A stretch of DNA of 63,627 bases, filler included, from Candidatus Woesearchaeota archaeon (GCA_023266675.1; 5 parts of 5 records of this genome joined end to end with filler, not necessarily neighbours in it); one strand, 5' to 3'; positions 5,537 to 63,627 are shown, counted from the first letter of the whole stretch. Translations and numbers: made by a program. Notes: generated by a model from the letters alone, not told the origin.

Positions 5537-6403
5537 TTGAAAGCATATCTTGAAATTGTACAGAAAATTCTTGAGAAAGGAGTTTTTAAAAAAAGCAGAA
5601 CAGGAGTTGACACACTCGTAGTTCCTGGCATGATTTTTGAACATGATATGAAAGACGGCTTTCCGCTTTTAACAACAAAAACTGTGCCATTTAGACTTGT
5701 AGCGTCAGAACTTGAATTCTTCATCAAAGGAATTACCGACAAGAAATGGTTGCAGGACAAGAATAATCACATATGGGATGAGTGGTGTTCGCCAGATAAG
5801 GTTTCATACGCGCATGACGATGAAACAAAAAAAGCAATGGCATCCGAGCGAGAGCTTGGGCCAATCTATGGCTGGCAATGGAGAAATTTTGGAGCAAAAT
5901 ACCAGTCACTTAGTGAGAAACCAAAAGGAGAGGGAATAGACCAGCTGAAAAAACTTGTTGAAACAATTAAAGAAAATCCAGACGACAGACGTATGATAGT
6001 TATGGCTTGGAATCCTACTGACCTAAAACACATGGCGCTTCCGCCTTGCCATTATTCATTTCAGGTAACTGTTACTAATGGTTATCTTAATCTTTTGTGG
6101 AACCAGCGCTCAGTAGATGTGGCGCTCGGCCTTCCATTTAACATTGCAAGCTATGCTCTTTTGCTTCATCTGCTTGCTAAAGAGACAGGACTAAAAGAGG
6201 GAAGGCTAGTCGGATTTTTGGCAGACACACACATATATACAAATCATGTTGATGGACTAAAAGAGCAGCTAAAAAGGGAGCCTTATTCACTTTCAAAAAT
6301 AAAAACAAACAATTTCAAGTCGATATTCACATGGAAATATGAAGACACAGAAGTTGAAGAATACAAATATCATCCAAGAATAAAGTTTGAAATTGCAGTA
6401 TGA
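5537..6403 (+). CDS. thyA: Thymidylate synthase ThyA (bacterial-type)
   Basis: RTG..T, FPLLTTK, IWDEW, LGPIYG.QWR, RRMIV.AWNP, LPPCH, QRSVD..LG.PFNIASY and HIY.NH motifs. TTG start. Confidence 0.97.
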   Translation: MKAYLEIVQKILEKGVFKKSRTGVDTLVVPGMIFEHDMKDGFPLLTTKTVPFRLVASELEFFIKGITDKKWLQDKNNHIWDEWCSPDKVSYAHDDETKKAMASERELGPIYGWQWRNFGAKYQSLSEKPKGEGIDQLKKLVETIKENPDDRRMIVMAWNPTDLKHMALPPCHYSFQVTVTNGYLNLLWNQRSVDVALGLPFNIASYALLLHLLAKETGLKEGRLVGFLADTHIYTNHVDGLKEQLKREPYSLSKIKTNNFKSIFTWKYEDTEVEEYKYHPRIKFEIAV

Positions 6404-6615: not shown

Positions 6616-6715
6616 NNNNNNNNNNNNNNNNNNNNNNNNNNNNNNNNNNNNNNNNNNNNTTAATTAATTAANNNNNNNNNNNNNNNNNNNNNNNNNNNNN
6701 NNNNNNNNNNNNNNN
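6616..6715. other. Artificial contig linker (N44-TTAATTAATTAA-N44)
   Basis: Same 100-nt spacer with six-frame stops occurs four times. Confidence 0.98.
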
Positions 6716-15900: not shown

Positions 15901-16477
15901 TAGTAAAATTACTATTTATTATTATATCCGTATCATCAAAATTAAACACTGGTTCAGTAAAAGTGAAACTTACTAAACCTTTTTCTCCTCTATGAATTGA
16001 AGTATCATTTAAAGATATAACAACTGTTGGTCTATTTGCATCTATTGCGTCAGCAGCATTTGCGTCTACGTTTCCTGTGAATGCAGCATTTGATTCACCA
16101 ATTGTATTATTTAAAATTAGATTAGCAACAGGGATATTTGCTCCTGCTGCAACATTTGTTCCACCATTTGTAATTGTGAATGTTGCAGTATAAGATGTAG
16201 AACTTGATCTAGATAATCCACCTAATGTAAATCCTCCGATTGTTCCAGAGACTAATATGTATGGTTGATTATCTGCAGAATCATCAGCAACAGTGATTGT
16301 TGCTGTAACAACATCATTAACCTTCATTGCAACATTAGGTATACTAACTGATGAAACTGAGGGAGTTGCCATTACAGAGCTGACGCTAAGGACGAGTAGA
16401 AGGATTGTGAGGGTTGTTAGAATAATATATTTTGATGTCTTTAGCTTTGTATTACTGTATGTAGATGTTATTTTCAT
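9950..16477 (-). CDS. Giant cell-surface glycoprotein/adhesin: Ig-like repeats, DUF3494 ice-binding-type domain, PGF-pre-PGF domain, C-terminal TM
   Basis: Signal peptide; repeated D..GN/VD..AP Ig-like modules; many N-x-S/T sequons; VDLGTAGNYVILAKTG...LTPGLYKW...IFWQVAG...GRALAQTAVTLD block; TPGFSYFAIG; Thr/Pro linker; TM and basic tail. Confidence 0.9.
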   Translation of the reverse strand: MKITSTYSNTKLKTSKYIILTTLTILLLVLSVSSVMATPSVSSVSIPNVAMKVNDVVTATITVADDSADNQPYILVSGTIGGFTLGGLSRSSSTSYTATFTITNGGTNVAAGANIPVANLILNNTIGESNAAFTGNVDANAADAIDANRPTVVISLNDTSIHRGEKGLVSFTFTEPVFNFDDTDIIINSNFTTLSAVSTTDNITWTTVLTPYDTNEGSQFNNLSIGTSWNDYAGNAPLIGNTSTNYTIDTLEPGITFVNTSKADGTYKAGDVINFTVNFSESVYVTGIPNITLNSGGYAFYSAGNGSIVLTFTYTVASGENSADLGYSSQFSLNTNNGTHSIKDILGNYATNFLPATGTFTGAHAIIIDTASPVLTFVNISSNNVNTTLATNGDTVNLTFTANETIGTPTVTIGGYATTPTNSSLTTWTALRVMNSSDALGKVNFTINFNDTVGNIGTPVTSITGGSNVTFDNLALNISFVYLNEADMFVSGTSPNNIITLRVNAADNGAAGIKYITANFSQVGLGLVNLTDIGGGVFNTSVALNSSIISTHNFDVSYITITDAKDNAGNSFTFTGVNQTQVILYNMTTPPSPSPLTCTQFGPLTTDFSTTTNFAAVNFIINIQANFSCMAQGLIPGLDSNFRDVMILNLTSVNLSTPQQAQKLSLLQSAMSVTLIAPNQFGDARIYINSTAFAELNTTSVIKFFYLPFTRLPAVIADIPSEFSGSSFVSNGYDSGLHTSTVNLTINVTGFSGYNVTDNSTPIIAFINPTQSMNTSTSVQTVNISINGTGTTLSSVLIIDSVGGLIGNLSNCSQISTGSDAYFCAFSYNFTQNTQHTLIVNATDFGGAAGNRASSNITFNVDNVAPTVNITAPVNSGVYNTTVSLNYIRTDSLSGISNCSYRLGNSSGYYSISIASCANVTSMVGVTSGSNNVTVYANDSVGNIGTSSMITFTVDTAAPVTVVSGNTSNVWVATNVTLTFTASDTNGLTVNATYFKVDSGSVTSANSTTISTTGNHTVIFYSIDNVGNREANNTIYVLVDRSGPTTVTTIIPTTNSQAVDLGTAGNYVILAKTGVSTTGTTTVTGNIGVSPAAATFITGFDLIMDASNTFSTSSLVTGNIYAADYTSPTPANMTTAISDMQTAYTNAAGRATPDYTELGTGNIGGMNLTPGLYKWGTGVTIPTDLVLNCSGDANGVFIFQIAQTLSISNGKRVNLTGGCQAQNIFWQVAGQTTLGTTSVFNGNILDMTAIVIQTGATLNGRALAQTAVTLDSNNVTVISATAVAPTFTWKNADFNVTLSATGISSVSYINYTLNGVSGQISGNNGTVLINTSQNNTLVYYAVDSQNNVESPHTIYPLLDTVAPTISIVSPANSTIYNATVALNYVIIDSLSGVSNCWYQLGNSSGYYNISIASCANVTSMVGVTSGLNNVTVYANDSANNLNASSRVNFTVDTTAPVTTVSGNSSLTWTASDVTLNFTSTDAVAGVLTTYSNASGTFVQGNSTTVSTTGNHTIIFYSLDNVGNREANKTVRVLVDKTGPTVGATNPGSNWLTTAFSVVLNATDANIGTVSNVSYSLNGAAYNTTSGSLINVTISGNGNNTLTYYATDSLGNNGSSTTIYALLRLAQAFNTTTVITSNFTQLDFNSSTSGLNATITVPQNASEVTLNFTSLISGITVVISGSINATVNTTDGIIDIKFPNNITINGTGWDGTLTLPKVKEDNSSTPNATTGYNATSLMVVEVGSSIANLTFNKAVRLVLPGMANKLAGYQRGITFTKITNNCTDDTQATNDNLTANTECKYTVGSDLVIWTKHFTSFVAYEESDTTAPGTPTYTLSKTGTVYVGDSLTATCTATDAVDGTVSHTTTLSTSSAGSKTATCTVTDAAGNSKSVSVSYTVTAKSSTTSTSSTSATPVEQSTSQSNVAADTATEMSFSKEGLAVTNVEFTLNEEASNVRIIATSLLGKPSGVGDVTSAKDVYGYIEISHPTIDNSKFKTAKLNFKVEKTWMTSRDAKSEEITLYRYVDNAWTELKTSATTDDSKYYYFSAETPGFSYFAIGVKEAAVVTPVATTTTPPAETPVTTTTPAETPKTTTPAVTETPPNIPTKKSNSKAVWLIIGAAIVALAVGFYFFNRGKKNEPVIISNKSEYKPKTSSTEKQQHHNKHHKEEEIIESDEEK
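11870..13880 (-). repeat. Intragenic duplicated Ig-like module pair flanking the DUF3494 domain
   Basis: Cores 12180-12317 and 13671-13808 are about 90% identical at nucleotide level by manual count; both encode LGNSSGYY.ISIASCANVTSMVGVTSG.NNVTVYANDS. Confidence 0.85.
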
Positions 16478-16648: not shown

Positions 16649-19600
16649 TTATTCATTTTTAGAATTTATTATTTCATTATCTTTGCTTTCAATTTTTATT
16701 TCTTTATTTGATGATACTTTAATATCATTTTTATTCTTCATTCTCATTGCGCTAGAAAAAATCATTATCAAAAATATCAGCACAGCAAACCTATAGTACC
16801 ATATCTTTTCAAGCTCAATATGTGGTAGGCTTCCTATAACGTTCCCGGTTAATAATGAAGGTTTATCTGAAGCATCGCTTTGTACTGTTTCATTTGTTTT
16901 AATAAGCGTTTCATTGTTATAAACTTGTGAATCTATTTTAATATTGACTTTCTGTTTTGCTGCAATTGCAAACACAGACATTCCTTTGCTTACGCTTTCA
17001 AATACGTAATTGTCAGCGTCTTCGCCTATTATTTTTGTTTCTAAACTTTCCCATGCACCGCTGGAAAATCTGTAAAGTGCAATCTCTTCCTGTTTTATAT
17101 TGTTGGCTGTAAACCATGATTTTTCGACTTTGAATTCTATTGCCGCAGACTTAATATCAGAATTATTCAGGTTTGGATGCTTTAGTTCCAAATATTTATA
17201 AACAGAGATTATCGTCTCTTTGTCTGTTTCAATTGATGGTATGCTATCAGGTTTTGACAAAAGCATTGATACACTAACGTCAGCGCTTTTTTCTCCGTTT
17301 AATAAAACAAGTGAAAGTTCTGTAATGGCGTCATTTGATTTTGAAAAAGAAATTTTTACAGTTTCTGTTGTGCTGGTTTCTAAATTATTTTGTGCAGTTT
17401 CTTGTGAAGTTGAAGCGCCTCTATCATTGCTGCCTTTTTTTGCACTAGTTGTTACCGGTCTTAAAATTACTGAATAATTCTTTTCAGCACTCACACTGTT
17501 TGAGGCGTCGTCGCTTGCAGTGCATTTTGCTGTGAATGTTCCAAGAGATGATGCAGACAGCCCGCTTATATTTCTTAAAACATTTGTGTCTATATTATCT
17601 GTGGCATCGCATACAGCGTTTAATGAATCATCCTTATATACTGTATCAGCTGAAAGATTAAATGAGTTTATTGTCGGAGGAGTTTTGTCAAAAACAACAA
17701 AACCAGAGTTAGTTGTTGAGTTGACACTTTGGCCGATATTTCCTGATGTGTCAGCAAAATCTATCGTGAAATTCAGCACCCCTTCATTATCAAGAGAAGT
17801 GAGATTGTATTTGCAAACATAATTATGGGTTGTTCCATTAATCAATTCAGGCGTGATATTTTTTTCATTTATTCTCACGTCTGGCAAGTTAAGCAAATCT
17901 TCTGACGCATTAAAATAAAGTGTTACTTCATCTCCAGTTTTCCCATATGACTTGTTTGTGCTGTTTGAAAAAATTGAAACGGCATTTAAAACAGGCGGCG
18001 TCTTGTCAAACACAACTTTCTTTCCTGAACTGTCGCTTGCAATCTGTGTGATAAAATTAAGCGCGATATCCGTGTAATTAACAGTGAAATTTACCTCTCC
18101 ATCGCTGTCATTTTGACTTAATGTGTAGTTTGTGCTCCAGTGTTTTAAATCAATCCCCTGTAAAACAGAAATATTTTTCCCATAAACAGTGATATTTGGG
18201 GTATTTATATCTTCATCAGTAATCATAATAAAACTAATTACTTCTCCTATTTTTGCTCTTGATTGGTTGGTGTTGTTTGTGAGCATCGTAATATTCTGAG
18301 GAGCATGCAGTATACCATCATAAATATTTACAATATCTGTCTGTTCAAGATTTCCATTTAAATAGGCGTCTTCTATGACACCAACATTTGCGAGTTCAAG
18401 TAGGTTTGTCCCGTTAACAAAGTTTTGTATCGCTCCATATATTATTATGTCTGCAGTGTCCTTAAAACCAAGATTTTCCACGCTTAACATGGTTTTGTTT
18501 CCAATGTTGCTTAGTACATCTTTTGATATTACAAAATCTGAAATTAATAATTGCGATAAATTTATCCTCTCGCTAAACGCAACTGTTATCGTTGTCGAAT
18601 TCTTTGTCTTTGCGCTGATTATTGTCGGTCCTGCCATATCAACTGAAGTTATGTTGTTAACTGATTCCATTAAATTACCTTTATCGTCAGCAATATTTCC
18701 TTTAATATAACTTAACAAGGGAGTGGCGCCAGTGTCAGGAAAGTCATTTTCAAGCATACTAAGATAAACAGTATTATTATTCTCGCTGTCAAGCACTGTG
18801 TTGTCAGAGCAGTCTGGGATTGTGCATACCTCAACAACATCATATCCGTTTACAGAAAATCCGCTTGGGTAGTCATCAGTAAATGTTTGAAAATCAAGCG
18901 TTTCGCTGAATATGATTTTTACGTTGTCTATGTACCCGTATGATTGGTAGTCTCCTGTTTCAATTCGTATTATCTTTGGTCCCTGTCTGTCGCTTATATT
19001 TTTTCCGCTAAAAGACGAAACCTCATTATCTGCGCTATCTTTGATTACCGCATAATTTGATGAATACTCAAAATCAGTTGCATTAAACGCTGTGTTGTTT
19101 ATATCTTCAACTTCCAATTCAACAATTGAGCCATTAACAAAAGCATTTAATGAAACTATACCTGTTGCTCTCCAGTCTCCTGACGCGCCAAAATTAAATG
19201 TTTCATTGTCCAGGTTTTCTGAAAAATTTAACATAATCCTGTTGCTAGCTGTTGCAGAGGCGCTTACAAAAACTGGTGAAGCTTCATCAATAAATGCTGC
19301 TTGGCTTTGCTCTTTTAACGCATCGTTTGTATTGCCGCGCCCGTCAACAAGTGAAAAATTGTTCTGTGTCGTAATTGAAACATTTTCAATGTGTGTTGCT
19401 GTAATATTTGATTCTGTTAAAAGCGTAATATCAACATTTGTAACGCCGCCGTATACGATGTTACTTAGGCTGTTTCCAAATGACGCGCCTATAATATTGC
19501 CATTAGAGCTAAATCTTAAATCATTCAGGCTCAAAAAGCTTGAGTTATCCAAACTTTCAGAAAAAAACAGTGTTAATGTATCAATTTTTCCGTTAGCATC

Positions 19601-20104
19601 AGTGTCTTTATATCTAAATGAGGATATCACCGGAGGCACGCTGTCAGCTGCGTTTGAAGGCAGAGCTGAACTGTTAAGCGTGCTTAAATTTGTTAAATAG
19701 TCTTTAAACCTGCTTGGGAAAAAAGTTACTCCTGGAGTTACCGAAGTATCAACTTCTGAATTTTCAGTTAAGTTATAATACAGTGTGTCTGTGGATATCC
19801 CGCTAACTGAAATAATGTCATATCCATCAACTGCAAGACCAGGATTTGAGTCAGCGCCAACTGCATAAACACCATTATCTGTGACTGCTTCTGAAAATGT
19901 AACCACAATCTTGTCAATTTTTCCGTTCTCATTATTGTCCAATGTGTAAACATTTGTTACTCTGGGAACGTTTGCAGAGGCATTATCTGATGATAATATC
20001 AATAATATGGTTAATATCGTCAAAGGTATTATTAATAATCTGGAATTTAAAGAGAAGTATCTATTAATATCTCTAAATATACCTAAACTAAACTCTTTTT
20101 TCAA
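16649..20104 (-). CDS. Large cell-surface protein with Ig-like repeats, PGF-pre-PGF-like domain and C-terminal TM
   Basis: Signal peptide, repeated D.N.NGKID and FSE.L modules, YKYLEL..F.VEKSW..LYR..W..L.T..SKGMSVFAI, TM. TTG start with GGAGTG SD. Confidence 0.85.
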   Translation of the reverse strand: MKKEFSLGIFRDINRYFSLNSRLLIIPLTILTILLILSSDNASANVPRVTNVYTLDNNENGKIDKIVVTFSEAVTDNGVYAVGADSNPGLAVDGYDIISVSGISTDTLYYNLTENSEVDTSVTPGVTFFPSRFKDYLTNLSTLNSSALPSNAADSVPPVISSFRYKDTDANGKIDTLTLFFSESLDNSSFLSLNDLRFSSNGNIIGASFGNSLSNIVYGGVTNVDITLLTESNITATHIENVSITTQNNFSLVDGRGNTNDALKEQSQAAFIDEASPVFVSASATASNRIMLNFSENLDNETFNFGASGDWRATGIVSLNAFVNGSIVELEVEDINNTAFNATDFEYSSNYAVIKDSADNEVSSFSGKNISDRQGPKIIRIETGDYQSYGYIDNVKIIFSETLDFQTFTDDYPSGFSVNGYDVVEVCTIPDCSDNTVLDSENNNTVYLSMLENDFPDTGATPLLSYIKGNIADDKGNLMESVNNITSVDMAGPTIISAKTKNSTTITVAFSERINLSQLLISDFVISKDVLSNIGNKTMLSVENLGFKDTADIIIYGAIQNFVNGTNLLELANVGVIEDAYLNGNLEQTDIVNIYDGILHAPQNITMLTNNTNQSRAKIGEVISFIMITDEDINTPNITVYGKNISVLQGIDLKHWSTNYTLSQNDSDGEVNFTVNYTDIALNFITQIASDSSGKKVVFDKTPPVLNAVSIFSNSTNKSYGKTGDEVTLYFNASEDLLNLPDVRINEKNITPELINGTTHNYVCKYNLTSLDNEGVLNFTIDFADTSGNIGQSVNSTTNSGFVVFDKTPPTINSFNLSADTVYKDDSLNAVCDATDNIDTNVLRNISGLSASSLGTFTAKCTASDDASNSVSAEKNYSVILRPVTTSAKKGSNDRGASTSQETAQNNLETSTTETVKISFSKSNDAITELSLVLLNGEKSADVSVSMLLSKPDSIPSIETDKETIISVYKYLELKHPNLNNSDIKSAAIEFKVEKSWFTANNIKQEEIALYRFSSGAWESLETKIIGEDADNYVFESVSKGMSVFAIAAKQKVNIKIDSQVYNNETLIKTNETVQSDASDKPSLLTGNVIGSLPHIELEKIWYYRFAVLIFLIMIFSSAMRMKNKNDIKVSSNKEIKIESKDNEIINSKNE

Positions 20105-28805: not shown

Positions 28806-28905
28806 NNNNNNNNNNNNNNNNNNNNNNNNNNNNNNNNNNNNNNNNNNNNTTAATTAATTAANNNNNNNNNNNNNNNNNNNNNNNNNNNNNNNNNNNNNNN
28901 NNNNN
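28806..28905. other. Artificial contig linker
   Basis: N44-TTAATTAATTAA-N44. Confidence 0.98.
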
Positions 28906-31840: not shown

Positions 31841-32569
31841 ATGAGAAAGGGATTAATAGCAGTAATATTGGTAGTATTATGTGCTTTGTCGTCAGTGGTA
31901 ATTTATGCTGCACCAAGTGGGCCAACAAGTATTGGATTAGGTGCATCAAGCAGGTATTCTGGGGAATCAAATGGAGCATTAGTAAATGCGTTAGCAGGAA
32001 ACGTTACGCAACTTGACATAAACGGAACATCAATAACCCAAGGCTGGCAAGGTTACTTTGGTAATGTTTTAGGAACAATAGTATTAGGAAACAATAATAA
32101 CAAAACATTATACGATTGGAGTTTACTAGCGCCAAGTGGACAAGTTTATGCATCAAGAAACAGCTCCGTAAGTTGGACAACATTGAATTGTTCAAACCAA
32201 ACTGTAATGCAAAACGTTATAGCTGCAGAAGAAGCTGCTTTAAACTTTCCGGTAACAGCAAAGGATGGTATAAACGAAACGTTTACCTCAACAAGTTATC
32301 CAAGTTTTTTTGTTGGAAGTTTGAATATAACAGCAAACACTTGTTATAACACGAATCTGCATAACAGCTCAGGACAAAAAGATGCAACAAGATGGTATGA
32401 AATATTGTTAAGAGATAGTTCAAACGGACTTGTGTATACTTCATTACTAGAAAACAATGGAGTAGGATTTGATGGCAGCAGCTACGACTTTCAGATGATA
32501 GTCGCAGAAGATGGACACAATGGAGACACGTCAACAACGCCATACTACTTTTGGATAGAGCTACAGTAA
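31841..32569 (+). CDS. Secreted protein, paralog B (candidate major subunit)
   Basis: Strong SD AGGAGGTGA; signal peptide; WQGYFGN..G, LYDW, GFDG..YDFQMIVAEDGH...YYFWIELQ. Confidence 0.88.
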   Translation: MRKGLIAVILVVLCALSSVVIYAAPSGPTSIGLGASSRYSGESNGALVNALAGNVTQLDINGTSITQGWQGYFGNVLGTIVLGNNNNKTLYDWSLLAPSGQVYASRNSSVSWTTLNCSNQTVMQNVIAAEEAALNFPVTAKDGINETFTSTSYPSFFVGSLNITANTCYNTNLHNSSGQKDATRWYEILLRDSSNGLVYTSLLENNGVGFDGSSYDFQMIVAEDGHNGDTSTTPYYFWIELQ

Positions 32570-35297: not shown

Positions 35298-35397
35298 NNN
35301 NNNNNNNNNNNNNNNNNNNNNNNNNNNNNNNNNNNNNNNNNTTAATTAATTAANNNNNNNNNNNNNNNNNNNNNNNNNNNNNNNNNNNNNNNNNNNN
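35298..35397. other. Artificial contig linker
   Basis: N44-TTAATTAATTAA-N44. Confidence 0.98.
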
Positions 35398-46902: not shown

Positions 46903-48345
46903 TTAATTAATCGTAAATCCGTTTAAGTTTATTGGTTTGTCTTGGATAAATGTAATTGAAGATTTTAGCGCAATTTCCGCCTTAAGAAGCTCCTGGGAAA
47001 CATAACCAAGATGGTCACTTCGTGAAAGAAGTCCAAGTTTTGCAATCTTTTGCATTAATACTCTTGCAGAAGTTCCTTTAAAACTCATCAAACTTTCACC
47101 ATTTGAATTTAATTCTGCAACAATATTATTCTCTTCAATCCATATGTTAATGTTTCCACGGGGGTCCATATCTTTTTTTTCATTAAAATAGTTCTTGTTT
47201 TCGAGGATATGAGAATTTATTATCTCCTCAGCGTCATTCCAATCTTCTTCATATATATGTGCTGAGTTTACCGTTATCATAAGTTTTCCAACTTGAAATC
47301 CTGTTGCCGTAGCGATATGTTTTTGCACGCCAATCAGCCCAAACACGTTAGGTATCCCTGCTTTAAAGATATCCTGAGATCTGAATGTGGCAAATAGATG
47401 AATCTTTTCGTCAGCAATAATCTGAATTTGGGTTAAACATGGCGGTGAACTAAGTGTTTCATCAATCGGTGGAAATATTGTTGTTGCAACTGCCCTCCTC
47501 GAATTGGAACAGCTTTTTATTTTTTCAATTAAAAATTGAATCTGATCAACAGATTCCGCAGGATATTTCCCGAGGCGCTGCCCATAAGTATATGAGGTTC
47601 CATCAGGGACATCTGTTTTTAGAAATTGTTTTTGGTATCTGTCAAGCATGTCTTTTTCAAGACCTATCTTTTTGCATAAATGTGAATTCCAATCTAGAAA
47701 TTCCATATCTGGCTCTTCAATCACCCATGATATTCCTTTAATTTCCTTCTGCATATTTCCGTACTCTGTCTTTTTTATATTACCATACCTGACTACTTTA
47801 ACAACTGTTTTAACCCACGAATCAAGAATATTTTCTCCTCTTACAACCCAGCCTATATCCTCGCTTGGAAAAGGAAGTTTTGTGTTTCTTTTAGGTTCAG
47901 GAAAACTTACTTGGTTCATGATTCCATCTCCATTTAATGGCCTGTCAAGCCCTTCATGAAGATTTTGCAGGGAATATGAAGAGATGTCGATAAGTTCAAC
48001 GTGTAGAATAAGTTTTTCCAAAGCGTCTTTATCAATCTCTTTTTGCACAGAAGAAAAGTCTCCTTCCCAAACTTTAAGAAGTGTTTTCCATCCCTGTTCA
48101 CCTATTGGTGTTTTGGATAAAGGATTATTTGACCAGACAAAAAGCTGCTTAACGTTCGGATTTAAAAACAAATTTCGCAATAGAATAGATACTCCTTCAA
48201 TGCTGTAAAGGCTGCTGATAATTGCGCATTTCTCAGTTAAAGTTGGATGAAGTTTTAGGATGGTATTAGGATCGCTCCAGCATGTACAAAGTGACTTGTC
48301 TCCTTTTCCTTCAATAACTGAATATTTCTGCGGTAGGTAAAGCAT
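46903..48345 (-). CDS. MtrA-like domain, thymidylate-synthase-fold domain and DUF4346-like C-terminal domain
   Basis: CT.W, AII.SLY...GV..LLRNL..NPNV; YTYGQRL, DQI, SRRA, PPCL, FRSQD....IPN, SAHIYE; DPRG...I, SR.DH.GY...EL.KAE.AL.....F.QD. Start is ATG 48345 or GTG 48366. Confidence 0.85.
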   Translation of the reverse strand: MLYLPQKYSVIEGKGDKSLCTCWSDPNTILKLHPTLTEKCAIISSLYSIEGVSILLRNLFLNPNVKQLFVWSNNPLSKTPIGEQGWKTLLKVWEGDFSSVQKEIDKDALEKLILHVELIDISSYSLQNLHEGLDRPLNGDGIMNQVSFPEPKRNTKLPFPSEDIGWVVRGENILDSWVKTVVKVVRYGNIKKTEYGNMQKEIKGISWVIEEPDMEFLDWNSHLCKKIGLEKDMLDRYQKQFLKTDVPDGTSYTYGQRLGKYPAESVDQIQFLIEKIKSCSNSRRAVATTIFPPIDETLSSPPCLTQIQIIADEKIHLFATFRSQDIFKAGIPNVFGLIGVQKHIATATGFQVGKLMITVNSAHIYEEDWNDAEEIINSHILENKNYFNEKKDMDPRGNINIWIEENNIVAELNSNGESLMSFKGTSARVLMQKIAKLGLLSRSDHLGYVSQELLKAEIALKSSITFIQDKPINLNGFTIN

Positions 48346-48428
48346 AGGAATAGAGTAGGAAAGCACGTATTTAAGATATGTGACATATATTCATTAAATT
48401 TATATATTATATCTTAATATTTGTCAGT

Positions 48429-52090: not shown

Positions 52091-53548
52091 CTAACACTTC
52101 TCTACGCTGTGTGCGTTCTCTACGTCTTTAGGTTTCTTTGTGAAGAATTCAATTGATTCGCGCAGCTCTTCGTGTGTTTTTGCGTACTCGTTTATGTCAA
52201 TATTCTTTGTGTATGCTTCACATGACTGCACTAACGCCATTGCACCAGCTTTAGTGCCTTTTGGGTGCGCGTGACACCCTGCTCCCATCGTTGTTATAAA
52301 GTCAGTGCTTCCCATTATATCAATGAATGGTTTTAATAAAACTGGGTTTAGTCCTCCTGAGATTATTGGGCAGCATTTCTTCATGCCTCGCCAGCTGTCG
52401 TCAGAAAGTATAACGTGGTGCGCGAGGTCTTCGTGAACCAGTCTTATTGCGTCATCATCATTTTGCGGAATTGTTGACCACGCCTGTTCAAAAATGTGAC
52501 CTTTGCCTACAAATCTTAAAATATTATTTGCTGCGGTTATATCCTCTTCAGGTGTGCCTGCCATTTTTCCTACACCAGCGGTTCCTGTGTGGATTCCTGA
52601 TGCACCAGCTAATCTAGCAAATTTTGAAAGAACTAAAACAGAAAATCCTATCGGATTTTCAGGCCGTGTAAAAGCTCCATGACCTGCTCTGTGAAAATGC
52701 AAAAATACATCCGGATATTTTCGCCTGAGTGTCTGCACAGCCATCCATCCAGCTGTTATGCCATCGATTAAGAATGCGTAGCTTCCTTTTTCAAATCCTG
52801 CATTTCTTATTATCTCGCATCTGGATATCATTTCGTCGTAATCTGATGCTGAAACGTTGAATGAGTGAACTTTTTTTCGCGCCGTTTCTTTTACTGCTTT
52901 GTCCATTGCCTCCTTAACGTGATATACCATCTTGTCGTATGGACAGAAATCCTGGTTAGCCTGAGGCTCGTCATTTTTTACAAAATCTCCACCGCCTACC
53001 CAAAAGTCGTAGCACACTTCGGCGTATTCTGCTGATGTTAACCCTATTTTTGGCTTGATTATTGTTCCAAGTATTGGCCTGTCATAAACATTAAGGTATT
53101 TTCTCATGTCGTCAATGGTGTAGCTTGGGCCGTCGTACTGCTCAATCATAGTCTGCGGAAACCACACGTCAAGAAGCTTTAATGCAACTATCTCTTTCAT
53201 ACCAAGAACGTTTCCTACAATGTATGTTAGAATATTCTGCACGTTTCCGCGCCTGTCAAAAAGCCTCCATGGATACGCTATCCAGACAATGTTTTTCTCA
53301 ATGTCTGCCTTATAGACTAAAGCGTTCATTTCGCGTGAAAAAGCCGTTTCAGTATTCACTAGAAAGTTTGTTCCTGTAGATGACTCCGCGGCTATCTCTG
53401 CTGCTGCCTGAAGAATGTTTAAGCGGGGATTTGATATAAAATGAAAGGCTGCAAGCATGTACTCTCCATTTTTGAAATTTGTAAGATTTAGATTAACGTA
53501 CGCTTCCTGATGAGGATTTAAAGTGCTTAATAGGTCTTCAACTTTCAT
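52091..53548 (-). CDS. rbcL: RuBisCO large subunit, form II/III
   Basis: AAESSTGT, GTIIKPK.GL, GGDFVKNDE, HFHRAGHG, HTGT..VGKM, ISGG and an approximately 30-aa C-terminal-domain insertion typical of form II/III. Confidence 0.94.
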   Translation of the reverse strand: MKVEDLLSTLNPHQEAYVNLNLTNFKNGEYMLAAFHFISNPRLNILQAAAEIAAESSTGTNFLVNTETAFSREMNALVYKADIEKNIVWIAYPWRLFDRRGNVQNILTYIVGNVLGMKEIVALKLLDVWFPQTMIEQYDGPSYTIDDMRKYLNVYDRPILGTIIKPKIGLTSAEYAEVCYDFWVGGGDFVKNDEPQANQDFCPYDKMVYHVKEAMDKAVKETARKKVHSFNVSASDYDEMISRCEIIRNAGFEKGSYAFLIDGITAGWMAVQTLRRKYPDVFLHFHRAGHGAFTRPENPIGFSVLVLSKFARLAGASGIHTGTAGVGKMAGTPEEDITAANNILRFVGKGHIFEQAWSTIPQNDDDAIRLVHEDLAHHVILSDDSWRGMKKCCPIISGGLNPVLLKPFIDIMGSTDFITTMGAGCHAHPKGTKAGAMALVQSCEAYTKNIDINEYAKTHEELRESIEFFTKKPKDVENAHSVEKC

Positions 53549-57360: not shown

Positions 57361-57460
57361 NNNNNNNNNNNNNNNNNNNNNNNNNNNNNNNNNNNNNNNN
57401 NNNNTTAATTAATTAANNNNNNNNNNNNNNNNNNNNNNNNNNNNNNNNNNNNNNNNNNNN
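57361..57460. other. Artificial contig linker
   Basis: N44-TTAATTAATTAA-N44. Confidence 0.98.
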
Positions 57461-57656
57461 TCGCCAGTTGTCAGCGAGGCTAAGGACTATCACAAAAAAG
57501 TAATAGTCCGAACTGTTTTGGTAAAACGCAAGAAAATGCAAAATCGCATTTTCTGCGCACAGAAAACTTTGTTTTCTTGTGCTTTTTCTTAAAAAGGTGA
57601 ACCGTTTCGTCAGTTGACGCTCGAGATTAAGGACTATTTTAGAAAATAGCCCGAAT
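57461..57656. repeat. Palindromic repeat units of the same family as 28600-28805, at contig start
   Basis: 57461-57568 equals 28698-28805 except one base. A further partial unit begins at 57600 (AACCGTTTCGTCAGTTGACGCTCGAGATTAAGGACTAT). Confidence 0.92.
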
Positions 57657-57697
57657 TATAATATTTTTCTCAAAGATTTTTAAAAGAAATAATCTTT

Positions 57698-60600
57698 TTA
57701 ACCTAAACAAACAGGACTAAAGAAAGAATTGTCATTCATCAAATCCTTTGTATTGTCACTAAACTGCATATTGCCTGCTGTGTCAACAGGTACAACGTAA
57801 AAGCAGATTTTTTTGCTTATGTCAAGACCTGATATTTCTGCTTCAAATTTATCATTATTAACCTGTATTGAGTTTGTATTATAATTGAGTGGAGTCATAT
57901 CTCCTTGTGTGTAATATATTTTATAATTACTTAATTCTCTATCTGCGTCAAAGTCTGAGCCGTCAATATTTTTTCTTGGCTTTGCTGCCCAGGTTATTTT
58001 TAATTTTTTATTGTCAATATCTTTTACGCCAAAAAAAGTGAATCCTAAAAGCGGATATGTTGCCGGAGGCAATGTGTCTTTGACATCAATTATCTTGAAA
58101 TTTGTCCTTCCTTTGTCAAAGTCTTCCATATTGACGTTTCCAAATCGGTCTATAGCCGCGATTGCAACGTAATATTTTTCACTTGTTAGGAAATTTATTC
58201 TAGCAAAATATTCATACAAATTTTCATTCTCATCCTCAATCTGGTACAAAGCACCTATTTTTGGAATTAATTTTCCAGACTTTTTTGTTTCAGATTCTAA
58301 GTAATTGTATTGAACTGTTATCTTGCTGTTTTCAAATGGTTTTTTTACTTCTGGTTTTTGAAGGTCAATTGATGATACGTCCTCTCTTTTTCCAATCTCA
58401 AACTCTTTTTTAGCTATGCCTGATGAAATATAATCTGACGCGTCAGACAGTTCTTTGTATGTTTTTCCTGTCAATACGTCTTTTGAGATAAAAACTGCGA
58501 ATTTTACAGTGTCGTCATCAGGGTATTCCTGGCTCCATTTGATAATGGCTTCCTTTTCAGATAATAATGAATCTGGCTGAGTTATATCCTGAATTATTGG
58601 AGGAGGAATTATATCCTTTAACGTGAATGCAAACTTGATATCTTTGCGAATATTTGCTACAGAGTTCTTATTTTTATCATACACGGGTATCAGTGTTTTT
58701 GTCTTTACACAAAGCTTAACTGTGTCTTTTTTTATTGAACACACTTCTTTTGGATTATTCAATGCCTCCTGTGATTTAACATTATAGTCCGAATCACTGA
58801 TAAATGAAATCATGCTGCCTGTTTTTTTAAGATAAAATGGTTTATCAAATTGAAGAGTATTATACATAAATTCTTTGGAATTTATTATTCCCTCTTTTGA
58901 AACTTTAAGTGAATAAGTAATATCATTTTTTTTGTCAAAAGACAATATCAAAACATCTTTCTTATCCAAAAATGTTCCTGCAAGACCAAGTTTATTATTT
59001 GAAAGCCTGACTATGTCAGCGTTGTCTTTTGACATTTTTACGTCATTAGTATCAGTTATTTCTATCCTAAATTCAGACTTTGAAGGGATATCATTTGGAA
59101 AATTTATCTTGCAGTAACAGCTTGTTTCAGTTGAATTTGCGCACAAAGAATAACTTTCTGCAAATGAATAGTATACCTTATTTTCAGGAATCTCACAATC
59201 TGTCTGCCAGTCAATATTTGGCTCTACTGACTTTGCGTTAGTTAATATGTTATCTGTAAAATCCTTTGGGTTTGTTGATGATAGGTAATTCTGGCTTAAT
59301 TTTTTTATTGCTGTAAAAATCTTATTATATATATCAAGATCAAAATTAAAGTCTGTCTTGAACGCTGGTGTAAAGGAATACTGTCCAATGCTGTCGTATA
59401 CTGCTGATGGTGATGAATAATCGTAAGAGCTTTTGGAAACCCCACTAGTGTCGTCTCCAGTAACACCACCTATCTGCCCGCATGCTGTGTTGTATATGTT
59501 ATAGACTCTTTGCGGATATTGAACACCGTATCCTGGATAATTGCATTTATCCTTGCCTTTAACGTCGTACCTGTAATAATCGTTTCCTTTTGGTACATCG
59601 GTTCTATAAATTTCTGTGCATCCTTTAAAGATTGCTTCATCAAGTTTGTATTGCCCTGACTTGTAATAATTGATAATTGTGGATATTGCCCCGCGGTTAT
59701 AGGAATACAATACAAGAGTTGTCTTGTCCTGCATTGATAATTCTTTTCCGTATTTTTCAACATCATTAAATTTCTGAAGATAAATTTTTATTCCTTCTTT
59801 TATCTGCGAATCCACATCAGGACATTTCTTTTGTCTTAAACATGCATCATCAACCTGCATTATCCCTCCATCTGCAGTGCTTTTTCCATTTGCTCTAAGC
59901 TCATCGGCATTCATGCAAGAAGATTCTGTTGAGACCAAAGACATTATCAATAATGGGTCAACGTCTAAATTGTATTGTTTGATGTATTTTTGGAATATGT
60001 CATAATACCTATAACAACCCTTTAGATTAGTATTTTGCATATTATTCAAATCTGCATTCTGGCATGATACTGCACCACTTGAAAGCGAAACTATTTTTTG
60101 TTCTGTAACCGAAGTTTGAGATGGTTTAGTATCTGGTTTTGTAGCAGCAGTTGCATCTGGGATTATTTCTTTCTGTTCTGGAAGCGAAAGTCCTTTCTGT
60201 TTATACACATCACAGAATTTTTTTGGAGCATCCTCTTTTTTTAAAGGAGAATGCAATGCATCAATCTGACTGCATGCCTTTGAAGAATAATCTATATCAA
60301 ACTGCGATAAATCAAAAAAACATGCAGGGTTAATTGCGAAATTTCCACCCGGTGTCCCCCTATAATTATATTCATAGGATATCTGCGAGTTTGTATCAGG
60401 GTCAATCATGAGGCTTTTTATTTTGTCGCTTATTACTTCAAGATGCAGATGAACGGAACCGTTAACTCTTTTTTTTGGATATCTTGCTCCAGCAATTCCT
60501 ATCTTATCTCCTTTTTTTACAACATCATTAACATTTACATTGATGCTGTCCATATGAAGAAAAGTTGTGTATAATCCGTTGCCGTGAAAGATTAATACTC

Positions 60601-61345
60601 TCCCCCAGCAGTCGCATCCTTCAGGATCTTTTTCAATAGCATCTTTATCTGAATATATGACTTTTCCATCTGCAACTGAATATACTTCTTTGCCGTTTTG
60701 TGTTGAAAAATCTATTCCTTCATACTCACTACTTGCCCCGGAACCTGCTTCACGGTATCCAAAACACGAAGTTATTTTGTTTGATATGGATGGGTTTCCA
60801 AAAAAGTTTCCTGGTGTTGCTATGTATTCTTGTTTTGGCTTCATATCTGTTATCGCAGTGCCTCCAATAGGAAGAATAACTTTATCCAAAGCTATCCCTT
60901 TAATTGTCTGATTTTCAGTCCATAAATCATATTGGCTGTTTATGTTATAAGTTTTAAACTGCGATAAATAACTGAGTAAAGAGCTTTGAAAATAACTCTC
61001 AAAATTTACGCTAACATCATCATTTTCAGGAATGCAATTTTTGTCTGCGCTTACTAGGAGCGTGCTTCCAAAATATTTTCCGCAATCACCGCGTCCGTCA
61101 GTTCCACCATTTTCTGCCAAGTTTTTTAACGAGTCATATGAAGCCTGCTTAGCTGATGAATCAATATAAAACAATATCTTTTCTGCATTATCATAAGTGT
61201 TGAGTAATTTATACTGAGTGTCTCCAAGCGGAAGTGTGTCATTTATTTTTTTGTAAAGCATAAGTCCAGCAGAAATGAAGATTATTATAGTGACTATAAC
61301 AAGCATTGCAGTTCCAAACTCTGTGGCTTTTTTTCCAAATTTCAC
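57698..61345 (-). CDS. Class III signal-peptide protein with M23 peptidase-like, lytic transglycosylase (SLT)-like and C-terminal FN3-like domains
   Basis: MKFGKKA/TEFG plus TM. M23: ITSCFGYR, YEGIDF, VYSVADGKV, TFLHM..I.V...D.VKKGD.IG..G, VHLHLEV, INP. SLT: VDPLLIMSLVSTESS, GGIMQV, YSYNRG. FN3: YYVAIAAIDRFGN, FYVVPVDTAGN. Confidence 0.88.
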   Translation of the reverse strand: MKFGKKATEFGTAMLVIVTIIIFISAGLMLYKKINDTLPLGDTQYKLLNTYDNAEKILFYIDSSAKQASYDSLKNLAENGGTDGRGDCGKYFGSTLLVSADKNCIPENDDVSVNFESYFQSSLLSYLSQFKTYNINSQYDLWTENQTIKGIALDKVILPIGGTAITDMKPKQEYIATPGNFFGNPSISNKITSCFGYREAGSGASSEYEGIDFSTQNGKEVYSVADGKVIYSDKDAIEKDPEGCDCWGRVLIFHGNGLYTTFLHMDSINVNVNDVVKKGDKIGIAGARYPKKRVNGSVHLHLEVISDKIKSLMIDPDTNSQISYEYNYRGTPGGNFAINPACFFDLSQFDIDYSSKACSQIDALHSPLKKEDAPKKFCDVYKQKGLSLPEQKEIIPDATAATKPDTKPSQTSVTEQKIVSLSSGAVSCQNADLNNMQNTNLKGCYRYYDIFQKYIKQYNLDVDPLLIMSLVSTESSCMNADELRANGKSTADGGIMQVDDACLRQKKCPDVDSQIKEGIKIYLQKFNDVEKYGKELSMQDKTTLVLYSYNRGAISTIINYYKSGQYKLDEAIFKGCTEIYRTDVPKGNDYYRYDVKGKDKCNYPGYGVQYPQRVYNIYNTACGQIGGVTGDDTSGVSKSSYDYSSPSAVYDSIGQYSFTPAFKTDFNFDLDIYNKIFTAIKKLSQNYLSSTNPKDFTDNILTNAKSVEPNIDWQTDCEIPENKVYYSFAESYSLCANSTETSCYCKINFPNDIPSKSEFRIEITDTNDVKMSKDNADIVRLSNNKLGLAGTFLDKKDVLILSFDKKNDITYSLKVSKEGIINSKEFMYNTLQFDKPFYLKKTGSMISFISDSDYNVKSQEALNNPKEVCSIKKDTVKLCVKTKTLIPVYDKNKNSVANIRKDIKFAFTLKDIIPPPIIQDITQPDSLLSEKEAIIKWSQEYPDDDTVKFAVFISKDVLTGKTYKELSDASDYISSGIAKKEFEIGKREDVSSIDLQKPEVKKPFENSKITVQYNYLESETKKSGKLIPKIGALYQIEDENENLYEYFARINFLTSEKYYVAIAAIDRFGNVNMEDFDKGRTNFKIIDVKDTLPPATYPLLGFTFFGVKDIDNKKLKITWAAKPRKNIDGSDFDADRELSNYKIYYTQGDMTPLNYNTNSIQVNNDKFEAEISGLDISKKICFYVVPVDTAGNMQFSDNTKDLMNDNSFFSPVCLG

Positions 61346-61818
61346 GTCGTCTCAAACCTCATGTCAATTGATTTCCCGTTAAATCCAGGCACTATTTCTG
61401 ATTCAGAAACTATTTGTTGTTTGGAAACACTTTCACAATTGTTACCTGATTCGATAATTTTAGTATTCGTTATAGTTATCTTCCAGCATATATTTTTATC
61501 AAACATATTCTTCATAAGTAAGTTTACACTATCAATTATTATTTGTTTCTCATTACTGTTTCCATCAAGATAGTATCTTGAAATAAGTTCATAAAGAGGC
61601 ATATTTGAGTTTTCATAACTTGTCTCTGATTTTAAGACACCAATCACAAAGATGTTGTTTCCAAGTTTTTCTTTTGTATTTTCAATTGAGTAAGAATTTC
61701 CTTTATTAAAATCAGAAAAAGTAAAAAATAATAGGATGATTATGATTACAAGAATAAACCCCATGAATATTATAAGAGGCTCTCCTAAAAGACCTTTTTT
61801 ATTTATTATTAGCTTCAT
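61342..61818 (-). CDS. Type IV pilin-like protein (class III signal peptide)
   Basis: MKLIINKKG/LLGE plus long hydrophobic helix; 4-nt overlaps with both neighbours. Confidence 0.75.
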   Translation of the reverse strand: MKLIINKKGLLGEPLIIFMGFILVIIIILLFFTFSDFNKGNSYSIENTKEKLGNNIFVIGVLKSETSYENSNMPLYELISRYYLDGNSNEKQIIIDSVNLLMKNMFDKNICWKITITNTKIIESGNNCESVSKQQIVSESEIVPGFNGKSIDMRFETT

Positions 61819-62348
61819 CTTTTCTTTGCCACCACGACTATTTCAAGAGTTGTTGATTCAATTTTATTGTTGAGGTAAACAAGGACTGGAAAAACTTTTA
61901 TTACTTTCTGGTATTTGCTTGAAAAAGTCAACGGCTCAATATCATCATAATCATCCTTGCTTATGTAAACAGGAGGATTGTTGTAAAGTGTTATTTTTAC
62001 TCCAAGTTTAGGCGTTAAGTTACCATCATTTGAATTTAGTATTACACAATTTTTTTTAAGGTATTCTTCATTATATTTTGTCTTGTCTATCTCGCCGGGA
62101 TAAATCCGAAAAACGTTGTCTTTCTCATTTTCATACACATCAATAAGTTCTGCTCTTGCAAGACAGTCCTTGCTGTTTATTATTCTTGCAGTGATAAGGT
62201 CAAGTTCAAGTGATTTTGTGTCAAGGTTTTTAGATATTGTTGAATTTACAAAAAAGACTAGCGCCACAATGACAATGATAATTAGAATTATACGAAATAT
62301 CCAAAACATCATATCATCGACTATGGCTTTTTTGTTCATTTTTATCAT
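61815..62348 (-). CDS. Type IV pilin-like protein (class III signal peptide)
   Basis: MNKKA/IVDD plus hydrophobic helix; one Cys pair. Confidence 0.75.
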   Translation of the reverse strand: MIKMNKKAIVDDMMFWIFRIILIIIVIVALVFFVNSTISKNLDTKSLELDLITARIINSKDCLARAELIDVYENEKDNVFRIYPGEIDKTKYNEEYLKKNCVILNSNDGNLTPKLGVKITLYNNPPVYISKDDYDDIEPLTFSSKYQKVIKVFPVLVYLNNKIESTTLEIVVVAKKR

Positions 62349-63406
62349 GAGTAATAACTCCTTATTGCGCTAATAAGCGAGTTCCCGATTTTTTCTATGT
62401 CTTGTCGATTTAATTTTTCAACATTTCCTATCTCAACAACAATTACAGGCTTTGATTCTGATATTTGCTCAACACTTAATATTAATGATGCATACATTCT
62501 TTTCATCTCTGTGTCGGAATAGGTTGGCTTTAAGTTTATGAGTGAAAGACCTGCAAGCTTCTGGGACTTCTTTCCAGACACATCATTTTTATCAGAATAA
62601 TAAACATCAATTGTTTCTTTGGTCTGTTTTTGTTCATTGACGTAAAGTATGACAATTAAATCAGAAGTCTCTGCCTGTTTTTTTCTGTCATTACTTGCCT
62701 GCGGATAAGTGCAGTCGTTTAACGAATATATTCCTTTGGAAACTGTAAGGTCTAATGTTCTGCATATATCCCTTAGCATTATTTTTCCGTCAATTGCAGA
62801 TTTAAAATCCTTATCTGATGGAGTGTAAAACATGTCAACATAAACGTGTGGCGTTTCAGCCCATTCAGAAACTTGCGTATTTATTATGCTTTTAAAATAG
62901 CTCTCATCGTTTTGTACTGGAATATTATTCTGGTTTGATGATGAAGATATTCCGTTTATGTTCTTTAAGAAAGATAATCGGTAAGAGTATGGCATATCTA
63001 CGCCGTTTTGATCTTTTTCAACTTTTGGCGCCGCAACAAAATCAGCAACTGGCATGTTTGACTGAAAAAGAAGAAATTTTGAAGTCTTTGAAGGCGAGAG
63101 GAGAGGCTCAACATTGTATGGGTTTGCCTGTACATAATTCTTGTTTATTGTTATCTTAAGCTCTTTTGCATGCTTGCTGTTCTCATCCGGGTAATTAAGC
63201 TGCACGTCGTATGGAGATGCCTGAAGCGATTCGATGACTAGGCCAATGTCTTTTGTAAGAAACTCGCGTTCAAAGTATGAGCTTTGCGCAACCGCATTCG
63301 TGAAACTAAGAAGTATTAAGAACACCGCGAAAACTATAATTAATGGAAACAGCGGCCCCAAAACTAATTCCTGAAAATTCCCTCTTTTTGTTGAGAATAA
63401 CCTCAT
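62345..63406 (-). CDS. Type IV pilin-like protein with a C-terminal degenerate N-acetylmuramoyl-L-alanine amidase-like domain
   Basis: MRLFSTKRG/NFQE plus TM; C-terminal DRKKQA...DLIVILYVN...VYYS...SQKLA...PVIVVEIGNV...IGNSL..AIRSY follows the Amidase_3 pattern. Confidence 0.65.
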   Translation of the reverse strand: MRLFSTKRGNFQELVLGPLFPLIIVFAVFLILLSFTNAVAQSSYFEREFLTKDIGLVIESLQASPYDVQLNYPDENSKHAKELKITINKNYVQANPYNVEPLLSPSKTSKFLLFQSNMPVADFVAAPKVEKDQNGVDMPYSYRLSFLKNINGISSSSNQNNIPVQNDESYFKSIINTQVSEWAETPHVYVDMFYTPSDKDFKSAIDGKIMLRDICRTLDLTVSKGIYSLNDCTYPQASNDRKKQAETSDLIVILYVNEQKQTKETIDVYYSDKNDVSGKKSQKLAGLSLINLKPTYSDTEMKRMYASLILSVEQISESKPVIVVEIGNVEKLNRQDIEKIGNSLISAIRSYYS

Positions 63407-63550
63407 TGACTTAATACTGCGTTTAGACGTTTAAATAGTTTACTAAAAGAAATACGATTGATCATTAAATTAATTAAAGAAAAATAAATTGTGAAAATTC
63501 ATAATCATTTGAAAAAAATATAAATAAAAATAATTTTAGAATAGATTATA

Positions 63551-63627
63551 TTATTTCTCAAATTTTGAGATTGGTTTTTCTGCGTTACTGAATGGAAAAG
63601 GTCTTTTGTTTGAAAGAAAAACCATGT
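63551..63627 (-). CDS. Possible 3' end of an upstream gene
   Basis: Open frame ...MVFLSNKRPFPFSNAEKPISKFEK* extends to the window edge. Confidence 0.35.
   Translation of the reverse strand, partial: MVFLSNKRPFPFSNAEKPISKFEK

Follow-up and report, generated by a model that had tools for sequence, protein, structure and literature searches.

Large extracellular proteins with murein transglycosylase domains are known from DPANN archaea and have been proposed to bind or degrade the bacterial wall, which would imply bacterial hosts (Castelle et al. 2021, PMC8204110), and the point about transglycosylases is repeated for DPANN elsewhere (PMC10936187). Whether DPANN archaea live on bacteria is still debated, and the published support so far, as given in the available portions of these sources, is the presence of such large transglycosylase-domain proteins. 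Three further systems are relevant for comparison. In bacteria, modular pilins such as PilB and PilC of Streptococcus sanguinis, CofB of enterotoxigenic Escherichia coli and GspK have been described (Raynaud et al. 2021, PMC8179133). In Sulfolobales, the bindosome comprises non-pilin archaeal proteins with class III leaders that are proposed to functionalise the base of the type IV filament (T4F) (PMC4471445, PMC13705601). Finally, archaeal peptidoglycan hydrolases that kill bacteria, Woldo and Danwoldo of Halogranum, have been reported, and M23 homologues are listed from four genomes of Nanoarchaeia (Strock et al. 2025, PMC12352652). Here, we describe four consecutive genes (A to D) in a 63,627-nt stretch of DNA (the window) from the genome of a Candidatus Woesearchaeota archaeon (GCA_023266675.1). 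On balance, we favor the reading that they form an operon for four DPANN surface proteins on type-IV-pilin-like front ends, which would act as a wall-cutting assembly at the contact with a bacterium. In this front end, a short basic leader with a terminal Gly or Ala precedes a long hydrophobic helix, and an acidic residue falls within the first five positions after the leader.

The locus resembles each of these systems in part. Protein D and the DPANN transglycosylase giants have in common their lineage, large size, extracellular character, a transglycosylase domain and a proposed role at the wall (PMC8204110, PMC10936187). All the descriptive features of fam00969 (large, extracellular murein transglycosylases of Woese- and Pacearchaeota) fit D, in a comparison made by description only. 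However, the available portions of both papers are without the operon partners, the M23 and amidase folds and the cassette swapping found with D; the words "pilin" and "pilus" are absent from those of PMC8204110, and "pili" from those of PMC10936187. Modular pilins, like A to D, graft a module on a pilin-type front end, and they often occur beside small minor pilins and are probably exposed at the tip; in contrast, they are bacterial, have the canonical G/FTLIE site and match IPR012902, whereas A to D show no pilin signature and carry wall-hydrolase cargo (PMC8179133, whose available portions contain neither "Archaea" nor "peptidoglycan"). Bindosome proteins are archaeal like A to D and, as is proposed for A to D, have class III leaders and are encoded apart from the assembly machinery, but their cargo consists of solute-binding proteins for ATP-binding cassette uptake and not of enzymes, whereas A to D carry hydrolase folds (PMC4471445, PMC13705601). 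The enzymes of the Woldo and Danwoldo type share with D an archaeal origin, M23 or glycosidase domains, a bacterial target (in D, a proposed one) and domain shuffling; unlike A to D with their membrane-helix front ends, they are soluble and have Sec or Tat signals and PG_binding_1 domains (PMC12352652, in whose available portions "Pilin" and "transmembrane" do not occur). Furthermore, a census from 2026 found T4F components in 2,942 Nanobdellati genomes, with DPANN pilin genes scattered from the ATPase and platform genes (PMC13705601; "peptidoglycan", "hydrolase" and "enzyme" are absent from the available portions). This scattering, together with the class III leaders on archaeal non-pilins of the bindosome, makes a pilin-type reading of the locus more plausible.

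The evidence that carries this reading begins with the organization of the locus. Genes A to D are open reading frames (ORFs) on the minus strand that span 57698-63406 (Table 1), and adjoining genes overlap by 4 nt (ATGA, ATGA and GTGA). An earlier note, made from the sequence before this analysis, had pointed out these stop/start overlaps and had also stated that all four proteins begin with basic residues, G or A and a hydrophobic helix; both descriptions are borne out. The leaders, with the putative cleavage site marked by a slash, are MRLFSTKRG/N in A, MIKMNKKA/I in B, MKLIINKKG/L in C and MKFGKKA/T in D (9, 8, 9 and 7 amino acids [aa], respectively), all ending in K-[KR]-[GA], and each precedes the only hydrophobic segment of its protein. 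When the whole window was scanned in six frames for ORFs of 80 aa or more in which a hydrophobic stretch follows [KR][KR][GA] at the N-terminus, five were recovered, namely A, B, C, D and one at 31841-32569. Since only one other ORF in the window has the pattern, its occurrence in four consecutive genes is not attributable to chance. The fifth ORF (plus strand, MRKG/LIAVILVV...) resembles a Sec signal peptide more and has no Pfam match. Taken together, the layout and the leaders support a single tight operon of proteins with class-III-like leaders.

Expression signals agree with this organization. There is no Shine-Dalgarno motif between the TATA-box-like TATTTAAA and the ATG of gene A, and AGGAG- or GAGGT-like motifs lie 8-14 nt upstream of the internal genes B, C and D. 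A leaderless first gene with coupled internal genes is the usual archaeal layout, a weak indication in a contig with 67% A+T. The database copy of gene B (P0079, 174 aa) starts 3 codons downstream; the overlapping ATG at 62348 is favored because an AGGAG motif lies 9 nt upstream of it.

Conservation of the leader site was assessed in the family of A, comprising A and 72 relatives (cluster representatives) from a representative library of 1.84 billion proteins. Mean column identity in the alignment of these 73 sequences is 13%. Nevertheless, [KR][GA] stands immediately ahead of the helix in 68-69 of the 73 members (68 by the stricter count), with G at position -1 in 53 and A in 16, and K at position -3 in 61; an acidic residue follows within +1 to +5 in 60 members (60 of the 68 with the site). 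The exceptions are apparent N-terminal truncations or have KQG or KKS. The same [KR][GA] site is kept before the helix in all seven members of the B family and in five of the six members of the D family, the sixth of which starts within the helix; K-K-[AG]-[TN]-E-[FY]-[GA] is likewise conserved in 5/6 of the D family. Judged from these alignments, the leader site is under selection and conserved beyond the needs of a membrane anchor, because it is retained in 68-69 of 73 A-family members despite so low an overall identity. A class III signal peptide is a hydrophilic leader of 6-26 aa that ends in Gly (Ala being tolerated in archaea) and is followed by about 21 mostly hydrophobic residues after the cleavage site, with Glu5 usual but often absent in archaea (PMC4471445). 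The leaders of A, B, C and D all have this length and this ending, a hydrophobic tract is present in all four, and acidic residues occur at +4 in A, +3/+4 in B, +4 in C and +2 in D. By the core pattern that we take FlaFind to use, only B and C would fit at +1.

The main rival to the pilin-type reading is that no pilus exists and that the N-termini are plain, uncleaved signal anchors tethering four ectoproteins, whose enzymes would reach a bacterium only at direct membrane-to-wall contact. We consider it a serious, if minority, possibility. It would explain why each protein has one N-terminal helix after Lys or Arg, as the positive-inside rule alone predicts, and it accords with the lack of pilin family or structure matches for A to D, with the lack of T4F machinery in the visible sequence and with the rare or unordered state of T4F loci in DPANN, as described in the available portions of PMC13705601. 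However, a plain anchor needs no small residue at one fixed position, and Gly or Ala is fixed there in 68-69 of the 73 A sequences and in all N-terminally complete relatives of B and D, accompanied by Lys at -3 and, shortly after the site, by an acidic residue. In addition, the 53-residue helix in the model of A far exceeds a membrane span.

That helix comes from an AlphaFold model of A (73-row alignment; pLDDT 89.7) with helices at residues 11-41 and 44-63 (a kink at 42-43), nine strands within 68-156 and an alpha/beta domain at 188-352. In the lollipop fold of pilins, an alpha-1 helix of about 50 residues is packed on a beta-meander head (Berry & Pelicic, PMC4471445), and a resemblance of the modeled helix and beta-rich head of A to this layout is plausible. 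For the C-terminal part, a Pfam search with the single sequence gave no match. The profile of the A family matches Amidase_3 structures (CwlV-type amidases) with an E value (E) of 2.9e-12, and Foldseek places the alpha/beta domain of the model with AmiP, AmiC, Rv3717, CwlV and PlyPSA (E 3.5e-6 to 3e-4; best match 7b3n, E 3.5e-6, template modeling [TM] score 0.66 by target; TM by target up to 0.67 overall). The earlier description of A as amidase-like is right as to this fold. Both zinc histidines are absent from A and its nine closest relatives, in which YVDMFYTP stands in place of IDPGHGG and ILYVNE in place of SLHxG; distant relatives keep GHGG and SLH. Only the Glu of the His/Glu/His site (VVEIGN) is retained in A. 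Amidase_3 was detected at the same C-terminal position in 12 of the 73 family members (E <=0.01; best E 4.4e-17), and, at E <=0.05, in 15 of the 42 long members scanned and in none of the nine closest relatives of A. The sequence suggests that this zinc-less amidase fold is more likely a peptidoglycan- or partner-binding module than an enzyme. Relatives of A vary in what follows the N-module (P0030, P0024 and P0052 are examples). One of the 73, P0030, has it fused to an NAGPA phosphodiester-glycosidase domain (E 4e-5), and many have a length of just 100-170 aa, among which there may be stand-alone pilin-sized proteins as well as gene fragments.

The front end of A recurs in B, whose N-terminal 65 residues are homologous to the N-module of A (hhalign probability 95%, E 2e-8, 63 columns, a score that the membrane helix may inflate). 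This profile alignment shows B to be a paralogue of the front end of A. B belongs to no known family in profile searches of Pfam, NCBIfam and the PDB; an assignment to DUF7287 or DUF7288 (Atlas scores of 0.83 and 0.78, below the 0.9 line) was dropped after hmmscan gave no match at E <=10. Two of the six relatives of B lie on contigs of the same size and source as those of the D homologues P0006 (16,398 bp) and P0003 (63,236 bp), and B and D homologues probably travel together, shared contigs being deduced from the matching sizes. C found no relatives in a word-indexed search and aligns with the A family over the leader and helix only (hhalign probability 68%).

Protein D has five relatives of comparable length in 5.8 billion clusters. 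Their alignment shows that the N-module and the C-module are conserved and that the peptidoglycan-hydrolase cassette is exchangeable. The common parts are the N-module (residues 1-175), a GH23 domain in five of the six proteins and a C-module of about 570 aa. The cassette between the N-module and GH23 holds M23 in D and P0002, M23 with M15_4-like and GDSL domains in P0003, NlpC/P60 with OSK/GDSL in P0004, an SLT domain with a significant Pfam match in P0005 and GDSL in P0006; P0005 has no GH23 domain, its SLT sitting in the cassette instead. The note had assigned D both an M23-like domain and an SLT-like domain with a TES glutamate, GIMQV and YNRG, and both assignments held. For M23, PF01551 matches residues 208-307 (E 9.2e-17) along with 24 PDB M23 chains, and all matches of D in the PDB, NCBIfam and PHROGs fall on this domain, except for a chance-level NCBIfam BlaP match elsewhere. 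Its homology is strong, but the first zinc His of HxxxD is replaced by Tyr208 (YEGID; window 60707-60727), with HxH (HLHLEV) and FLHMD kept. The Tyr208 codon, TAT, is one transition away from CAT, and the closest M23-bearing homologues, P0002 and P0003, have His; the substitution could reflect a recent loss of activity, variation between strains or an error in sequencing. Consequently to be read as a family member by homology, the domain has a doubtful catalytic site.

For the SLT-like region, Pfam SLT gave no match to the single sequence of D at E <0.1, and the best PDB match of this stretch was EtgA, a type III secretion transglycosylase (E 0.16). The profile of the six D-family members matches six goose-type lysozyme (GH23) chains (E 2.6e-7 to 3e-5), and Pfam SLT matches the homologue P0005 (E 4e-17). 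In the alignment to lysozyme, Glu474 of STESS (residues 472-476) falls on the glutamate of R-E-S, which we take to be the catalytic residue, GIMQV (494-498) on GLMQV and YNRG (549-552) on YNAG. The fold-family match, the Glu of E-S, G-[LI]-M-Q and Y-N-x-G are all present, and the GH23 domain looks intact, as a lytic transglycosylase or a lysozyme-type hydrolase. Among the hydrolase folds of D and A, GH23 alone appears to keep its full catalytic signature. The earlier proposal of three enzymes for three bond classes fails on this point, as the amidase fold has lost both zinc His and M23 one ligand; the D family as a whole, by its domain content, samples several bond classes.

The C-module is the best-conserved part of the family (GEYSFTPAFE ... 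CFYVVPVD ... FFSPKC) and has no Pfam or PDB sequence match above chance; a CofB_C match to D (E 0.06; 13.6 bits, with the cutoff at 27) was treated as chance. In all six D-family proteins, a conserved F-[FY]-x-P-x-C motif stands a few residues short of the C-terminus (window 57701-57720), and the family has at least eight invariant cysteines. The cysteines and the terminal motif suggest disulfides, or a site of C-terminal modification or attachment.

Bacteria pair the degenerate LytM factors EnvC and NlpD with the Amidase_3 enzymes AmiA, AmiB and AmiC. D and A are similar to these pairs in that a LytM fold that has lost one of its zinc ligands is encoded alongside an Amidase_3 fold, and 8c0j, the PDB entry of AmiB bound to the LytM domain of EnvC, is among the Foldseek matches of A. 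In contrast to AmiA, AmiB and AmiC, A is itself an amidase fold without zinc ligands, so an activation of catalysis is unlikely. A contact between A and D, by analogy with EnvC and AmiB, is a speculation.

The nature of the substrate follows from the composition of the cassettes. GDSL/SGNH esterases include peptidoglycan de-O-acetylases. Since every swapped cassette domain in the D family acts on murein, peptidoglycan is the coherent substrate, and the target named in the earlier note is upheld by homologues that exchange NlpC/P60, a second SLT, M15-like and GDSL/SGNH domains. The target could instead be the envelope of the archaeon itself or of an archaeal host (in division, or a wall made of pseudomurein or of a peptidoglycan-like material). 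In that case, the amidase and M23 folds, degenerate as they are, could regulate rather than attack, and the hosts known for cultured DPANN are archaeal, according to the available portions of PMC8204110. We nevertheless hold this alternative to be improbable. It is established knowledge that GH23 enzymes act on the N-acetylmuramic acid-N-acetylglucosamine glycan of bacterial murein; moreover, the NlpC/P60, M15-like and GDSL set of the D homologues fits murein only, and no murein-synthesis gene was found among the 47 other ORFs scanned.

Under the reading that we favor, A to D would be inserted with a cytoplasmic N-terminus and the remainder outside, the leader being removed by a class III signal peptidase. 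The helices of A to D would then assemble into a short type-IV-filament-like fiber, a tip complex or a bindosome-like layer, by means of machinery encoded elsewhere. On bacterial contact, the dead amidase fold of A would bind peptidoglycan, as the M23 domain of D may do too, and the GH23 domain of D would cut glycan strands locally, which would let the archaeon attach to a bacterium, as host or prey, or gain access to it. A more specific version, which we put forward only tentatively, is a wall-breaching organelle, in which the four proteins would together form the complex that primes a type-IV-filament machine or sits at its tip, with D as a modular pilin bearing the exchangeable hydrolase cassettes and A, through its dead amidase fold, as the grip on peptidoglycan.

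It is important to consider that several observations weigh against the reading of a pilin-like, wall-cutting assembly. At the leader, the acidic residue of A to D is never at +5, and a polar residue (N, S, E, D, Q) or Thr occupies position +1. In the A family, the stretch of highest conservation (FE[KR]xFLxRDxAL) comes after the membrane helix; classical pilins, in contrast, are most conserved in the helix. No pilin or class-III hidden Markov model of Pfam or NCBIfam matches A to D, the 73 A-family or the 7 B-family sequences; no solved pilin was matched in sequence-profile searches, and none appears among the 42 best Foldseek rows for A (down to rank 50), where the amidase fold is dominant. 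No prepilin peptidase, ATPase or platform gene was found in the 57 kb of the other contigs, where 47 further ORFs were scanned, or on the visible 6.2 kb of the operon contig. Two of the three hydrolase folds are without catalytic metal ligands. The N-module of D has no profile similarity to A or B, and its AlphaFold model (residues 1-180, 6 sequences) reached a pLDDT of 50.6, too low for use. Searches of 185,579 species-representative genomes with the D-family and A-family alignments returned 135 and 21 pattern matches, respectively, with none confirmed; the two families are thus rare or absent among named representatives. Lastly, the operon is tied to the archaeal contigs only through binning and the taxonomy of its relatives.

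The last point bears on whose genes these are. The window consists of five contigs joined by four identical linkers (44 N, TTAATTAATTAA, 44 N), so that gene neighborhood across a linker is meaningless, and the operon stands alone on the last piece (57461-63627, 6.2 kb). The database copy of D is on a contig of 36,173 bp, that is, with about 30 kb more beyond the window end. The other four pieces are clearly archaeal, with ribosomal proteins S8e, L15e, L31e and S19e, the ThrRS editing domain specific to archaea, TsaD of the Kae1 type, DUF655 and the large chain of RuBisCO. The 6.2-kb piece might have been binned wrongly and come from a bacterium (Patescibacteria, for instance), a phage or a conjugative element, in which case D would be an ordinary hydrolase of cell wall remodeling or of a secretion system. 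Gram-positive conjugation systems have hydrolases with a transmembrane-LytM-SLT architecture, to which D could then be likened. An artificial linker is all that connects the operon to the archaeal contigs, its own contig has no taxonomic marker gene, and the M23, GH23 and Amidase_3 folds are all typically bacterial. Even so, we regard mis-binning as very improbable. The Atlas feature neighbors of A (scores of 0.95, 0.93 and 0.93) are 100% Archaea and those of B (three at 0.95) 94-100% Archaea, and the commonest taxa in the clusters near both are Candidatus Woesearchaeota or Nanobdellota. The G+C content of the operon piece (33.3%) falls inside the range of the other pieces (30.9-35.1%), and the leaders differ from the bacterial GFTLIE type. 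Searches with tblastn gave no match for D and A in 50,697 phage records, nor for D in 72,556 plasmid records, and PHROGs matches to D are confined to the M23 domain; an origin from a phage or plasmid was rejected on these grounds. These results support the assignment of the operon to a DPANN archaeon of the Woesearchaeota/Nanobdellota kind, in agreement with the note, which had held the locus to be DPANN-like and had named a contig that bins to a bacterium as the finding that would speak against it.

As to novelty, the earlier claim is too strong. The transglycosylase giants and the idea of bacterial hosts were already published, but the pilin-like leaders on a hydrolase and its partners, their operon, the family of A with its front end on Amidase_3 and the cassette swapping appear to be undescribed. 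A full-text literature search found no description of a DPANN pilin-fronted hydrolase operon among the 15 best matches, although supplements might list such proteins; the five matches joining DPANN, lytic transglycosylase and pilin concern Patescibacteria. To the debate on bacterial hosts the locus adds a testable anatomy, with a conserved and probably processed pilin-like front end on a hydrolase and three co-transcribed partners, and an archaeal family (72 cluster representatives) that places the A-type front end on Amidase_3 domains. The swapped hydrolase cassette in relatives of D is as expected for a determinant of host range or of an arms race. The ideas of the modular pilin and the bindosome would be extended to enzymes in archaea, the pilus being the part that we infer. 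Should the wall-breaching organelle prove true, it would be the first archaeal surface machine specialized for attacking bacteria and direct evidence, at the molecular level, for bacteria as the hosts of some DPANN.

Table 1. Coordinates of the operon, its protein domains and the joints between contigs in the window
Feature	Position	Strand	Details and basis
Gene A	62345-63406	-	353 aa; leader MRLFSTKRG at 63380-63406
Gene B	61815-62348	-	177 aa; leader MIKMNKKA, then hydrophobic helix
Gene C	61342-61818	-	158 aa; leader MKLIINKKG, then hydrophobic helix
Gene D	57698-61345	-	1215 aa; GTG start
TATA-box-like TATTTAAA	63430-63437	-	Centre ~27 nt upstream of gene A ATG; sequence inspection
A, long N-terminal helix, residues 11-63	~63218-63379	-	AlphaFold model
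A, beta-rich head, residues 68-156	gene A	-	AlphaFold model
A, zinc-less Amidase_3 fold, residues 183-353	62348-62860	-	Foldseek, profile
D, leader MKFGKKA and hydrophobic helix, residues 1-35	61241-61345	-	Alignment
D, conserved N-module, residues 36-175, GDTQYKLLNTYDNAEK...	60821-61240	-	Family alignment
D, Peptidase_M23/LytM domain	60398-60796	-	Pfam PF01551; Tyr208; FLHMD and HLHLEV kept
D, GH23 (SLT/goose-lysozyme-like) domain	59651-60028	-	Family profile; Glu474, GIMQV, YNRG
D, C-terminal module, residues 640-1215, GQYSFTPAF ... CFYVVPVD ... FFSPVC	57701-59428	-	Family alignment
Artificial linkers	6616-6715, 28806-28905, 35298-35397, 57361-57460

Downstream of gene D, at the contig end (57461-57655), there are two copies of an element of about 50 nt, 146-147 nt apart, each with a TCGNCAGTTG ... 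TAAGGACTAT hairpin and the terminus ...CCGAA, and with further small hairpins between the copies. They may represent either two terminators or an intergenic element that is repeated. The hairpin elements have no Rfam match, and the Rfam scan of the operon contig gave only a sub-threshold S15-leader match (E 0.3).

Another contig of the bin holds two giant ORFs on the minus strand, one of 2175 aa (9950-16477) with an Ice-binding-like domain (E 3.6e-78) and Big_12 and one of 1151 aa (16649-20104) with no Pfam match; both probably encode additional proteins of the surface or for adhesion in this archaeon, whose genome is small. Furthermore, the bin encodes the RuBisCO large chain (52091-53548), two thymidylate-synthase-like genes (5537-6403 and 46903-48366), one of which is fused to a PterinBD-DUF4346 domain, and a 451-aa protein with an MtrA-like domain (3610-4965), a set that fits the nucleotide-salvage metabolism described for Pacearchaeota and Woesearchaeota.

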